From NCBI RefSeq assembly GCF_046105845.1, contig NZ_CP151004.1: a DNA stretch of 64,000 nt; one strand, written 5' to 3'. Under the pieces are notes generated by a model. That model was not told the origin of the DNA, did not search any database, and saw only the letters and a program-made list of their open reading frames with translations. The DNA is from Escherichia coli. GTDB taxonomy: Bacteria > Pseudomonadota > Gammaproteobacteria > Enterobacterales > Enterobacteriaceae. Shown one piece after another: positions 4,732 to 18,273 of this stretch. Positions within the stretch are counted from its first letter, which is position 1, and each line of letters starts with the position of its first letter. The position numbers and the translations under genes were made by a program.

Positions 4732-4831
<100 letters not shown>

Positions 4832-10576: not shown

Positions 10577-10676
10577 GCCTGATGCGCTGCGCTTATCAGG
10601 CCTACTGGATGAGTTGCAATATATTGAATTTGCACGATCTTGTAGGCCGGATAAGGCATTTACGCCGCATCCGGCA
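10577..10676. repeat. REP/BIME element downstream of livF
   Basis: gcctgatgcgctgcgcttatcaggcctac and tgtaggccggataaggcatttacgccgcatccggca, two REP units in inverted orientation. Confidence 0.85.
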
Positions 10677-10776
10677 TGAAACGATGAGCAATCTGTAGAG
10701 TTTGATTCAGACCTTCTATTTTTCCCGCTTATCCGTGCCCCATCTCCCATTTTCCCTCACCCGTACCGTCACCGCC

Positions 10777-10794
10777 TTGTCATCTTTCTGACAC
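10777..10794 (+). promoter_or_regulatory. Candidate Pho box (PhoB site) in the ugpB promoter region
   Basis: TTGTCAT-N4-CTGACAC resembles the CTGTCAT direct-repeat PhoB consensus. The ugp operon is a known Pho regulon member. Confidence 0.5.
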
Positions 10795-10912
10795 CTTACT
10801 ATCTTACAAATGTAACAAAAAGGTTATTTTTCTGTAATTCGAGCATGTCATGTTACCCCGCGAGCATAAAACGCGTGAATTCGCGCATTCGGTACAACAA
10901 GAGAGATAAACG

Positions 10913-12229
10913 ATGAAACCGTTACATTATACAGCTTCAGCACTGGCGCTCGGACTGGCGTTAATGGGGAATGCACAGGCAGTGACGACCATTCCGTTCT
11001 GGCATTCTATGGAAGGGGAACTGGGTAAAGAGGTGGATTCTCTTGCCCAACGTTTTAACGCCGAAAACCCGGATTACAAAATTGTACCGACCTATAAAGG
11101 CAACTACGAACAGAATTTAAGCGCGGGGATTGCCGCATTTCGTACCGGCAACGCTCCGGCTATTTTGCAGGTTTATGAAGTTGGCACCGCCACCATGATG
11201 GCGTCGAAAGCCATTAAACCGGTATATGACGTGTTTAAAGAGGCGGGGATTCAGTTCGATGAGTCGCAGTTTGTGCCGACGGTTTCAGGCTACTACTCCG
11301 ACAGCAAAACCGGCCACTTACTCTCCCAGCCGTTCAATAGCTCGACTCCTGTTCTCTATTACAACAAAGACGCCTTCAAGAAAGCGGGGTTAGACCCGGA
11401 ACAGCCGCCGAAAACTTGGCAGGATCTGGCGGACTATGCCGCAAAACTGAAAGCCTCCGGCATGAAGTGCGGCTACGCCAGCGGCTGGCAGGGCTGGATC
11501 CAACTGGAAAACTTTAGCGCCTGGAACGGTCTGCCGTTTGCCAGCAAAAACAACGGCTTTGACGGCACGGACGCGGTGCTGGAGTTCAACAAGCCGGAGC
11601 AGGTGAAACACATCGCCATGCTCGAAGAGATGAACAAGAAGGGCGACTTCAGCTACGTCGGTCGTAAGGATGAATCCACCGAGAAGTTCTATAACGGTGA
11701 TTGCGCGATGACCACCGCCTCTTCTGGTTCTCTTGCCAATATTCGTGAGTACGCCAAATTTAACTACGGCGTAGGCATGATGCCTTACGACGCTGACGCG
11801 AAAGATGCGCCACAAAACGCCATTATCGGCGGAGCCAGCCTGTGGGTAATGCAGGGTAAAGATAAAGAAACTTATACGGGTGTGGCGAAGTTCCTCGACT
11901 TCCTCGCGAAGCCAGAAAACGCTGCCGAGTGGCATCAGAAAACTGGTTATCTGCCAATCACCAAAGCGGCGTATGACCTGACCCGTGAGCAAGGCTTTTA
12001 TGAGAAAAACCCAGGTGCGGATACCGCGACGCGTCAGATGCTGAATAAGCCGCCGTTACCGTTCACCAAAGGGCTGCGTCTGGGCAACATGCCGCAGATC
12101 CGCGTGATTGTGGATGAAGAGCTGGAGAGCGTGTGGACCGGTAAGAAGACACCACAGCAGGCACTGGATACCGCCGTTGAGCGTGGGAACCAGTTACTGC
12201 GCCGCTTTGAGCAGTCTACGAAGTCTTAA
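10913..12229 (+). CDS. ugpB: sn-Glycerol-3-phosphate periplasmic binding protein UgpB
   Basis: 438 aa with signal peptide. Followed by ugpAEC. Confidence 0.95.
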
Positions 12230-12235
12230 TTCTCT

Positions 12236-12385
12236 TACCCTCACCCTAACCCTCTCCCAAAGGGAGAGGGGACCGATCGGCGTGGTATCCAGGTGCCGTG
12301 TCGGTTTGCAACTTCGCTCGGTGGGAAAGTATGCACCGCCTTTCTCCCTCGCCCCTCTGGGGAGAGGGCCGGGGTGAGGGGATCA
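12236..12385. repeat. Long imperfect palindromic intergenic element between ugpB and ugpA
   Basis: ccctcaccctaaccctctcccaaagggagagggg on the left is mirrored on the right by ccctctggggagagggccggggtgagggg. The arms are inverted repeats of each other, with internal short hairpins. Confidence 0.55.
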
Positions 12386-12404
12386 CAACACGAAGAGTTT
12401 AACT

Positions 12405-13292
12405 ATGTCATCATCCCGTCCGGTGTTCCGCTCGCGCTGGCTGCCCTATTTGCTGGTCGCGCCGCAGCTCATCATCACCGTTATCTTTTTTATCTGGCCT
12501 GCGGGCGAAGCGTTGTGGTACTCGCTGCAAAGCGTCGATCCGTTTGGTTTCTCCAGCCAGTTTGTCGGCCTGGATAACTTCGTCACGCTGTTTCATGACA
12601 GCTACTATCTCGACTCCTTCTGGACGACGATAAAATTCAGCACCTTTGTCACCGTCAGTGGTTTGCTGGTGTCGCTGTTCTTTGCGGCGCTGGTGGAGTA
12701 CATCGTGCGCGGCAGCCGTTTCTATCAAACCTTGATGCTGCTGCCGTATGCCGTGGCTCCCGCCGTTGCCGCCGTATTGTGGATCTTCCTGTTTAACCCT
12801 GGTCGCGGGCTGATCACCCATTTTCTCGCTGAGTTCGGCTACGACTGGAACCACGCGCAAAACAGCGGTCAGGCGATGTTTCTGGTGGTGTTTGCCTCGG
12901 TGTGGAAGCAAATCAGCTACAACTTTCTGTTCTTCTATGCCGCGCTGCAATCCATTCCCCGTTCGTTGATCGAAGCCGCAGCCATCGACGGTGCAGGCCC
13001 GATTCGCCGCTTCTTTAAGATTGCGCTGCCGCTTATCGCTCCGGTGAGTTTCTTCCTGCTGGTGGTGAACCTGGTGTACGCCTTCTTCGACACCTTCCCG
13101 GTGATCGACGCCGCCACGTCCGGCGGGCCGGTTCAGGCCACCACGACGCTGATTTATAAGATTTACCGCGAAGGCTTTACCGGACTGGATCTGGCTTCGT
13201 CTGCCGCGCAGTCGGTGGTGTTGATGTTCCTCGTCATCGTGCTGACGGTGGTGCAGTTCCGCTATGTTGAAAGCAAGGTGCGTTACCAATGA
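12405..13292 (+). CDS. ugpA: sn-Glycerol-3-phosphate ABC transporter permease UgpA
   Basis: 295 aa membrane protein. Operon context. Confidence 0.95.
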
Positions 13293-16492: not shown

Positions 16493-18238
16493 ATGATAAA
16501 ACCGACGTTTTTACGCCGGGTGGCCATTGCTGCTCTGTTCACAGGAAGTTGTTTTAGTACGGTAGCCGCGCCACCTGCGCCGTCTCCTGTTTCTTACGGC
16601 GTGGAGGAAGATGTCTTTCATCCGGTACGCGCGAAACAGGGGATGGTGGCGTCTGTAGATGCTACTGCCACTCAGGTGGGGGTGGATATCCTCAAGGAGG
16701 GCGGGAATGCCGTTGATGCCGCCGTGGCTGTGGGCTACGCGCTGGCGGTAACGCATCCGCAGGCAGGGAATCTGGGCGGTGGTGGTTTTATGCTGATCCG
16801 CTCGAAAAATGGCAATACCACTGCTATCGATTTCCGCGAAATGGCACCCGCCAAAGCGACCCGCGATATGTTCCTTGATGATCAGGGTAACCCGGACAGC
16901 AAAAAATCACTCACTTCGCATCTGGCTTCTGGTACGCCCGGTACGGTAGCAGGTTTCTCGCTGGCGTTGGATAAATACGGCACCATGCCGTTGAACAAAG
17001 TGGTGCAACCGGCGTTTAAACTGGCACGCGATGGTTTTATCGTTAACGACGCGTTGGCTGACGATCTCAAAACCTACGGTAGCGAAGTGCTGCCGAATCA
17101 CGAAAACAGCAAGGCTATCTTCTGGAAAGAGGGCGCGCCGCTGAAAAAGGGCGACAAGCTGGTGCAGGCGAACCTGGCAAAGAGCCTGGAGATGATTGCC
17201 GAAAACGGCCCGGACGAATTCTACAAAGGCACGATAGCGGAACAGATTGCCCAGGAGATGCAGAAAAACGGTGGCTTGATCACTAAAGAAGATTTAGCGG
17301 CGTATAAAGCGGTCGAGCGCACACCAATAAGCGGCGATTATCGCGGGTATCAGGTTTACTCCATGCCACCGCCATCTTCCGGCGGGATTCATATCGTGCA
17401 GATCCTCAATATCCTGGAAAACTTCGATATGCAGAAATACGGCTTTGGCAGCGCCGATGCGATGCAAGTCATGGCAGAAGCGGAGAAATACGCCTACGCC
17501 GACCGCTCGGAATATCTTGGCGACCCGGATTTTGTCAAAGTCCCGTGGCAGGCGCTGACCAATAAAGCCTATGCCAAATCTATTGCCGATCAAATCGATA
17601 TCAATAAAGCGAAGCCATCCAGCGAAATTCGCCCCGGCAAGCTTGCGCCTTATGAGAGTAATCAAACTACCCATTACTCAGTGGTGGATAAAGACGGCAA
17701 CGCGGTAGCGGTGACCTATACGCTGAACACCACCTTCGGTACGGGCATTGTCGCGGGTGATAGCGGTATTCTGCTTAATAACCAGATGGATGATTTCTCC
17801 GCCAAACCTGGCGTACCGAACGTTTACGGGCTGGTGGGCGGTGACGCCAACGCGGTCGGGCCGAATAAACGCCCGCTGTCGTCGATGTCCCCAACCATTG
17901 TGGTGAAAGACGGTAAAACCTGGCTGGTTACCGGTAGCCCTGGCGGGAGCCGGATTATCACCACCGTGCTGCAAATGGTAGTGAATAGTATCGATTATGG
18001 CATGAACGTCGCCGAAGCGACCAATGCGCCGCGTTTCCACCATCAGTGGTTGCCGGACGAGCTGCGTGTCGAAAAAGGGTTTAGCCCGGATACGATCAAG
18101 CTGCTGGAAGCAAAAGGTCAGAAAGTGGCGCTGAAAGAGGCGATGGGTAGTACACAAAGCATTATGGTTGGGCCTGACGGTGAGCTGTACGGTGCATCTG
18201 ACCCGCGCTCGGTAGATGATTTAACGGCGGGGTATTAA
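16493..18238 (+). CDS. ggt: Gamma-glutamyltranspeptidase
   Basis: 581 aa from ATG 16493 (MIKPTFLRR...). Signal peptide. Autoprocessing site and nucleophile context NQTTHYSVVD, GGG motif. Confidence 0.95.
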   Translation: MIKPTFLRRVAIAALFTGSCFSTVAAPPAPSPVSYGVEEDVFHPVRAKQGMVASVDATATQVGVDILKEGGNAVDAAVAVGYALAVTHPQAGNLGGGGFMLIRSKNGNTTAIDFREMAPAKATRDMFLDDQGNPDSKKSLTSHLASGTPGTVAGFSLALDKYGTMPLNKVVQPAFKLARDGFIVNDALADDLKTYGSEVLPNHENSKAIFWKEGAPLKKGDKLVQANLAKSLEMIAENGPDEFYKGTIAEQIAQEMQKNGGLITKEDLAAYKAVERTPISGDYRGYQVYSMPPPSSGGIHIVQILNILENFDMQKYGFGSADAMQVMAEAEKYAYADRSEYLGDPDFVKVPWQALTNKAYAKSIADQIDINKAKPSSEIRPGKLAPYESNQTTHYSVVDKDGNAVAVTYTLNTTFGTGIVAGDSGILLNNQMDDFSAKPGVPNVYGLVGGDANAVGPNKRPLSSMSPTIVVKDGKTWLVTGSPGGSRIITTVLQMVVNSIDYGMNVAEATNAPRFHHQWLPDELRVEKGFSPDTIKLLEAKGQKVALKEAMGSTQSIMVGPDGELYGASDPRSVDDLTAGY

Positions 18239-18242
18239 TATC

Positions 18243-18273
18243 TTAAGCCCTCTCCCGATAGGCGAGGGCTTAA
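18243..18273. terminator. Hairpin between convergent ggt and yhhY (probable bidirectional terminator)
   Basis: aagccctc ... gagggctt inverted repeat within a 60-bp convergent intergenic gap. Confidence 0.5.

Follow-up and report, generated by a model that had tools for sequence, protein, structure and literature searches.

The palindrome between ugpB and ugpA in an Escherichia coli strain is almost certainly an inverted pair of BoxC elements, at a junction held by a REP pair in other strains

The genes ugpB and ugpA, whose names are taken from the RefSeq annotation of identical sequence in E. coli strain VCSW7, are separated in the window (the whole stretch of 64,000 nucleotides that was analysed) by a spacer of 175 nt, between the ugpB stop codon at 12227-12229 and the ugpA ATG at 12405. 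A repeat search of this spacer finds two inverted arms of 34 nt, at 12238-12271 and 12347-12380, that are 74% complementary and separated by 75 nt, together with a second nested hairpin at 12347-12374, on the side of what is referred to below as hairpin B. The first-pass annotation had described a compound palindrome at this position, built from CCCTCTCCC/GGGAGAGGG arms with nested hairpins, and this description is borne out; its limits of 12236-12385 lie a few bases off those of the element as defined here, 12238-12381, beyond which weak similarity to the family discussed below continues to about position 12396. The 9+3+9 pattern of hairpin A (Table 1) has a chance expectation of 0.00 in the window.

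The same annotation set the palindrome apart from the classic REP sequences, and in this it was correct, as a seed search of the window finds REP-like seeds at five other places, including 4732-4821, 10577-10663, and 43810-43897, and none in 12230-12404. A cluster of classic REP-like seeds is found in the livF-ugpB spacer, just 5' of the ugp operon. A scan of positions 11900-12700 against Rfam, with E values up to 10, returned only matches below threshold, the best being whalefall-1 (17.7 bits against a threshold of 37, E = 0.09). Two open reading frames cross the spacer, one of 46 amino acids on the minus strand (12246-12386) and one of 94 amino acids on the plus strand (12293-12577). Both lie in the repeat or in coding sequence read out of frame, and neither has any support as a gene.

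The sequence of the arms identifies the repeat family, a matter that the first-pass annotation had left for checking. The BoxC element of Bergler et al. (1992), the PIT element of Hoyne et al. (2000), and the TMECO of Holder et al. (2015, PMC4666352) are one and the same. PIT stands for potential intrastrand triplex, and a further PIT study is that of Hoyne & Maher (2002). The consensus is CCCTCNCCC-N3-6-GGGNGAGGG-N3-GGGNGAGGG, in which a second loop of TTA defines type A and one of CCG type B, with the suffix "mm" denoting a single stem mismatch (PMC4666352). The genome of strain MG1655 contains 23 TMECOs, with inverted pairs at five sites, each consisting of one A and one B unit (PMC4666352). 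A regular expression written from the consensus matches the window twice, at 12238-12270 on the minus strand and at 12346-12380 on the plus strand, and the pairing of A with B is respected, the left unit having TTA and the right unit CCG. The right unit, which the expression parses as CCCTCGCCC CTCTG GGGAGAGGG CCG GGGTGAGGG, differs from K-12 TMECO no. 18 at a single loop base and nowhere else. The arms therefore fit the family consensus, and they are also multi-copy, as detailed below. We conclude that the palindrome is, with very little doubt, a head-to-head inverted pair of BoxC units, type A on the minus strand and type B-mm on the plus strand, around a non-conserved core of 75 nt.

Table 1. 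Coordinates of the BoxC pair and of its parts in the ugpB-ugpA spacer (window positions)
Feature	Position	Strand	Description
Left BoxC unit, type A, no stem mismatch	12238-12271	-	CCCTCTCCC-TTT-GGGAGAGGG-TTA-GGGTGAGGG; located by regular expression
Outer closing helix, 5' half	12238-12247	+	CCCUCACCCU; starts 8 nt after the ugpB stop
Hairpin A	12250-12270	+	CCCTCTCCC-AAA-GGGAGAGGG; perfect 9+3+9, loop of 3 nt; predicted RNA energy -18.4 kcal/mol
Variable core	12271-12345	+	edges GACCGATCGGCG (left) and CACCGCCTTTCTC (right) conserved in the family
Right BoxC unit, type B-mm	12346-12381	+	CCCTCGCCCC-TCT-GGGGAGAGGG-CCG-GGGTGAGGGG; located by regular expression
Outer closing helix, 3' half	12371-12380	+	GGGGUGAGGG; predicted partner of 12238-12247
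Right flank to ugpA start	12382-12404	+	ATCACAACACGAAGAGTTTAACT; putative ugpA Shine-Dalgarno GAAGAG

The repeat unit is a little larger than the 36-nt motif. Its inner flanks, GACCGATCGGCG and CACCGCCTTTCTC, are conserved, and there is a weaker outer flank, ATCAGCGCGCACG, to which the ATCA..CACG of the right flank in the window is a weak match. Single-stranded oligonucleotides of the A, B, A-mm, and B-mm consensus were shown by CD and NMR to form an intrastrand purine-motif triplex (PMC4666352), and the units of the window differ from these triplex-forming oligonucleotides in their loop bases alone. Elsewhere in the window, at 18238-18272, a hairpin (AAGCCCTCTCCCGATAGGCGAGGGCTT) with BoxC-like C-rich and G-rich arms stands right after a stop codon. 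The pattern match that it gives at 18248-18268 was rejected as a BoxC element since the third arm is absent, leaving a simple post-stop hairpin.

As RNA, the spacer is predicted to adopt a very stable structure. The predicted free energy of -83.9 kcal/mol compares with a mean of -65.2 kcal/mol for 200 dinucleotide shuffles (z = -4.1), none of the 200 being as stable. Two near-isoenergetic folds are predicted, a rod (-83.9 kcal/mol) and a three-hairpin multiloop (-82.9 kcal/mol), the latter made up of hairpin A (-18.4 kcal/mol), a hairpin of the core itself at about 12271-12306, and hairpin B (-16.2 kcal/mol); the core folded by itself gives -25.5 kcal/mol. Both folds are closed by the same predicted 10-bp outer helix, 12238-12247 with 12371-12380, which is kept when the local hairpins are enforced as well as in the minimum-energy fold. 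In an alignment of 11 head-to-head elements, 97.3% of cells are paired and 20 of the 27 pairs are invariant. A single outer-helix pair changes from A:U to U:A in two of the 11 elements, which are related in sequence; the change is probably one event. The covariation score was reached by 11 of 500 shuffles, with arms that are almost invariant across the 11 elements. Because 20 of the 27 pairs never vary and there is one double change only, covariation cannot support the fold.

BoxC is abundant in the species as a whole. A blastn search with the spacer gave matches in 5,400 of 5,426 complete E. coli genomes, at a median of 19 places per genome, and the six other loci that were examined are all intergenic. 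The closest paralogue is K-12 TMECO 17+18, between lldD and trmL (129 nt, 71% identity), which has the same order as the window, namely A on the minus strand, core, and B on the plus strand. Further head-to-head copies, with cores of 40-75 nt, occur at phnK-phnL and at flgG-flgH, in the latter case with the inner part partly duplicated. Tail-to-tail copies with a linker of 16-27 nt are found at hrpB-mrcB, alx-sstT, and gcvP-ygfF, and single BoxC units occur alone too.

BoxC lies in or beside the phosphate-starvation transport operons at phnK-phnL in strain PI6 and at ugpB-ugpA in the window, and Table S2 of Holder et al. (PMC4666352) places K-12 BoxC sites at pstA-pstB and downstream of phnP. 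The chance of finding two of 18 K-12 BoxC sites next to Pho operons is about 3%, a rough post-hoc estimate that should be regarded as a lead only.

Within E. coli, the window-type spacer is found in 317 of 5,426 complete genomes, at 98-100% identity apart from one outlier at 88%, a share of approximately 6%. The span between the genes was 78-80 nt shorter in 36 further E. coli genomes that were sampled, and the three alternative spacers that were read are each 97 nt long and each contain a classic inverted REP pair. From the ugpB stop to the ugpA ATG, the BoxC-pair and REP-pair forms have nothing in common. Comparison of the window with K-12 gives 0-10 differences per 100 nt, a level that is flat from livG to ugpQ and jumps inside the spacer only. 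The flat divergence across livG-ugpQ rules out a large horizontally transferred tract, and the restriction of the rise to the spacer indicates that the REP/BoxC difference is a spacer-sized replacement.

Strain N3 (locus L091, 76-247) provides a second BoxC-type spacer, 88% identical to that of the window, with a different left flank and with 7 nt deleted from the 5' arm of hairpin B. The UgpB and UgpA proteins of this strain match those of a K-12-like strain exactly, and the combination of K-12-identical proteins with a diverged BoxC spacer points to exchange of the spacer only. The GTDB reference E. coli (L010, spacer before position 1201) has a third form, a REP pair of 100 nt that is closer to that of Citrobacter youngae (L015) than to the 97-nt pair of K-12. 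There are thus at least four spacer forms in E. coli: that of the window, that of N3, the 97-nt REP pair of K-12, and the 100-nt REP pair of L010. No empty ugpB-ugpA spacer was found among the sampled E. coli genomes. The putative ribosome-binding region of ugpA reads GAAGAGTTTAACT with BoxC (12382-12404) and TTCAGGAATTAACCGTA with REP (L002, 478-497); since it differs with the type of repeat, the forms may also differ in initiation of ugpA translation.

The two forms extend beyond the species. One genome per species was scanned, which gave 80 ugpA loci. Among the Enterobacteriaceae, REP pairs occupy the junction in the E. coli reference, E. albertii, three Citrobacter, Pseudocitrobacter faecalis, Pseudescherichia, Cedecea, and others, and head-to-head BoxC pairs occupy it in a Pseudocitrobacter metagenome-assembled genome (MAG), a Pluralibacter species, Kluyvera, Superficieibacter, isolate RIT691, and Enterobacter cloacae. 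Both forms therefore exist within Pseudocitrobacter. The BoxC pairs of these genera begin 8-13 nt beyond the ugpB stop, and their arms are 83-97% identical to those of the window. The cores, taken from the same-site copies in other genera and from the paralogues, are 16-60% identical to that of the window and range from 12 to 209 nt. Collapsed remnants of BoxC remain in Enterobacter sp. BIGb0383 and Pluralibacter gergoviae, and a Leclercia adecarboxylata MAG (L022, approximately 1046-1200) has a BoxC-like hairpin on its own, CCCTCATCCCAACCCTCTCCCACAGGGAGAGGG, nested between the members of a REP pair. The spacer of Superficieibacter electus (L024, 893-1200) is 308 nt long, with a BoxC pair around a core module of about 120 nt that is present twice, which shows that BoxC cores grow by internal duplication.

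The flanking sequence also varies with the form. BoxC-type spacers mostly have the right flank of the window, ..AGAGTTTAACT-ATG, which is common to those of Kluyvera, the Pseudocitrobacter MAG, and Enterobacter, and which is found as well in more distant genera that have neither repeat. REP-type spacers have ..TTCAGGAA.. in place of the AGAGTTTAACT flank, and a small number of recombinants are seen. Other structured sequences were encountered at this junction in the course of the survey, among them a GC-rich palindrome of another kind, CCCCTTCGCAGGGGGAGGAGC, present three or four times in Rahnella inusitata (L044), and a degenerate BoxC-like unit in Serratia silvae (L035). Across the Proteobacteria, the spacer is 35 nt or longer at 75 of the 81 ugpB-ugpA junctions examined. 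For those 75, the median fold z is -3.2, and z is below -2 in 71%, whatever the sequence family.

If the element acts at the level of RNA, its mode of operation could be as follows. It would be transcribed within the ugpBAECQ mRNA, and hairpin A would be the first part to form. Once the element was complete, its two outermost segments, the "third strands" when the DNA forms a triplex, would pair together and close a multibranched structure of approximately -84 kcal/mol, 8 nt after the ugpB stop. This step is suggested by the geometry of the pair: the outermost 9-mer of each unit is its third-strand segment, and these 9-mers are mutually complementary when the units stand head to head. According to the literature cited on the point, RNA does not form purine-motif triplexes, which makes mutual pairing of the outer 9-mers likely in the transcript. 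With no U-run on the 3' side, RNA polymerase would continue into ugpA. The structure would then block 3'-to-5' exonucleases and so protect the upstream ugpB segment, raising the output of binding protein relative to that of the permease genes, as REP pairs have been shown to do in other operons. REP sequences were reportedly recognized as 3'-exonuclease barriers by Newbury et al. in 1987.

Among functional roles, this barrier to 3'-exonucleases is the best-supported reading, although as a mechanism in its own right it is put forward tentatively, at less than even odds. It is suggested by three features of the comparative data: the alternative occupant of exactly this site is a REP pair, the BoxC pair has kept its position from genus to genus even as its core decays, and stable folds are predicted at most of the 75 Proteobacteria spacers whatever their sequence family. 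The junction bears a REP pair elsewhere in E. coli and a predicted stable hairpin in most other Proteobacteria examined, in keeping with a stabilizing role. REP hairpins reportedly stabilize mRNA as barriers to exonucleases (PMC12306157). Against this, the BoxC literature consulted describes no regulatory role, in assays that concerned transcription rather than mRNA stability, and K-12 units with no bias in distance or operon position; the element is partly decayed in some genomes (N3, Enterobacter sp. BIGb0383, and Pluralibacter gergoviae); and conservation of the arms could reflect gene conversion among copies rather than selection at ugpB-ugpA. For the identity and the stabilizing mechanism taken together, we would give a blended probability of roughly 0.55.

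The main rival to a stabilizing role is that the BoxC pair, as a neutral or selfish repeat, plays no part in ugp expression. Its DNA, by forming an intrastrand triplex or a hairpin when single-stranded, would leave the surrounding sequence liable to deletion, replacement, and gene conversion, an instability of the kind argued for by Holder et al., and the REP-versus-BoxC difference would be a by-product of it. This is a serious contender, though we would not back it at even odds. Raised sequence variability around TMECO loci was reported by Holder et al. (2015, PMC4666352), along with triplexes that are stable in vitro in single-stranded oligonucleotides and palindromic sites at which partial deletion has left a hairpin behind. 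At ugpB-ugpA itself, the existence of at least four spacer forms in E. coli, the 7-nt deletion in N3, and cores that range from 12 to 209 nt between genera are compatible with such instability, and the published tests consulted report no regulatory role. The BoxC triplex, however, stable as it is in vitro, was not detected in vivo (PMC4666352), and a neutral repeat accounts less readily for two features of the junction, namely that a structured element of some family is kept there in most sampled genomes, and that the BoxC pair holds its position in at least six genera while its core is scrambled.

Two further possibilities would give the structure a role in expression of a different kind. In one, which had been raised in the first-pass annotation alongside stabilization, partial termination of transcription between ugpB and ugpA would lower expression of the permease genes. 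The great predicted stability of this GC-rich structure is in keeping with such attenuation, as are the BIME-associated attenuation described for REP by Espeli et al. (2001, as cited in PMC12306157) and the occurrence in distant genera, such as Pantoea (L040), of hairpins followed by T-runs in the same spacer. In the window, however, the bases 3' of the last helix are ATCACAACACG, with no T-run after any spacer hairpin; a scan of 10700-13000 for terminators and promoters placed no site within the spacer; and single PIT elements had neither promoter nor terminator activity, nor any effect on RNA polymerase, in the work of Hoyne & Maher (2002) as reported in PMC4666352. Together, these observations disfavor attenuation and make it very unlikely. 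In the other, the structure would stall the ribosome as it terminates on ugpB, lowering the output of UgpB. REPs less than 16 nt from a stop codon reportedly stall ribosomes (Liang, Rudd & Deutscher 2015, as cited in PMC12306157), and the outer helix begins at 12238, 8 nt past the stop, with a distance of 8-13 nt in the BoxC pairs of other genera. The rule of less than 16 nt was shown for REP and not for BoxC, however; the outer helix needs approximately 140 more nt to be transcribed and would be kept open by ribosomes on ugpB; and the nearest local hairpin begins 20 nt after the stop, which weakens this reading and leaves it improbable.

The stabilizer reading can be extended to the junction as a whole. 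It may be that ugpB-ugpA needs a strong stem-loop, for which the REP pair and the BoxC pair would serve as interchangeable cassettes in a two-form polymorphism that crosses genera and is still segregating both in E. coli, at approximately 6% against 94%, and in Pseudocitrobacter. We regard this extension as doubtful, but if true it would provide the first physiological role for BoxC pairs, as barriers at mRNA 3' ends; the barrier would set the stoichiometry of binding protein to permease, and this might explain the recurrence of BoxC in phosphate-starvation transport operons. The wider interest of the locus lies in the fact that BoxC/TMECO has been known since 1992 and is still without an assigned function. 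Having a REP pair or a BoxC pair at one junction, in backgrounds that are otherwise about 97% identical, amounts to a natural experiment, and it offers a clean way of testing whether a BoxC pair acts on mRNA. For annotation the lesson is a routine one, that of a known repeat left unannotated by RefSeq.

Comparison with known systems helps to place the element. With MITEs, of which ERIC is an enterobacterial example, it shares long terminal inverted repeats, a variable core, dispersed intergenic copies, and differences in presence or absence between strains. It differs from them in that it has no visible target-site duplication, no direct repeat flanking the element (the ends read TTCTCTTA and ATCACAAC), and in that BoxC units also occur solo and tail-to-tail. 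The missing duplication and the absence of an empty site among the sampled E. coli genomes make a MITE the less likely explanation; the absence of an empty site is accounted for by the alternative form being another repeat.

The resemblance to REP pairs and BIMEs, such as that at ugpB-ugpA in K-12, is one of position and form. Both start a few nt past the upstream stop, and both have predicted stable stem-loops with no T-run. The sequences are unrelated, since a core of the GCCGGATG.. / ..CATCCGGC type is absent here and present in the alternative spacer form. We know of no dedicated transposase for BoxC, unlike the REP-associated TnpA.

It is to the BoxC/TMECO family that the likeness is closest. 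The arms fit the consensus and its A and B subtypes, the copies are intergenic and numerous, the A+B inverted pair is of the kind found at five K-12 sites, and the architecture is that of TMECO 17+18. The differences are that K-12 has no BoxC at ugpB-ugpA and that the core is 75 nt in the window versus 16-59 nt in the K-12 pairs. Membership of the family does not explain how the element works, as the family is without demonstrated function, and no RNA-level experiment on BoxC was found in the literature searched. Neither ugp nor the exact arm sequences were found in the available portion of the 56-strain table of Holder et al., including its rows for IAI39, CE10, and SMS-3-5. The family and its inverted-pair configuration are therefore already known, and what is new is the locus, ugpB-ugpA, at which K-12 lacks the pair. 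The polymorphism between REP and BoxC at one junction, running across genera, seems not to have been noted previously.
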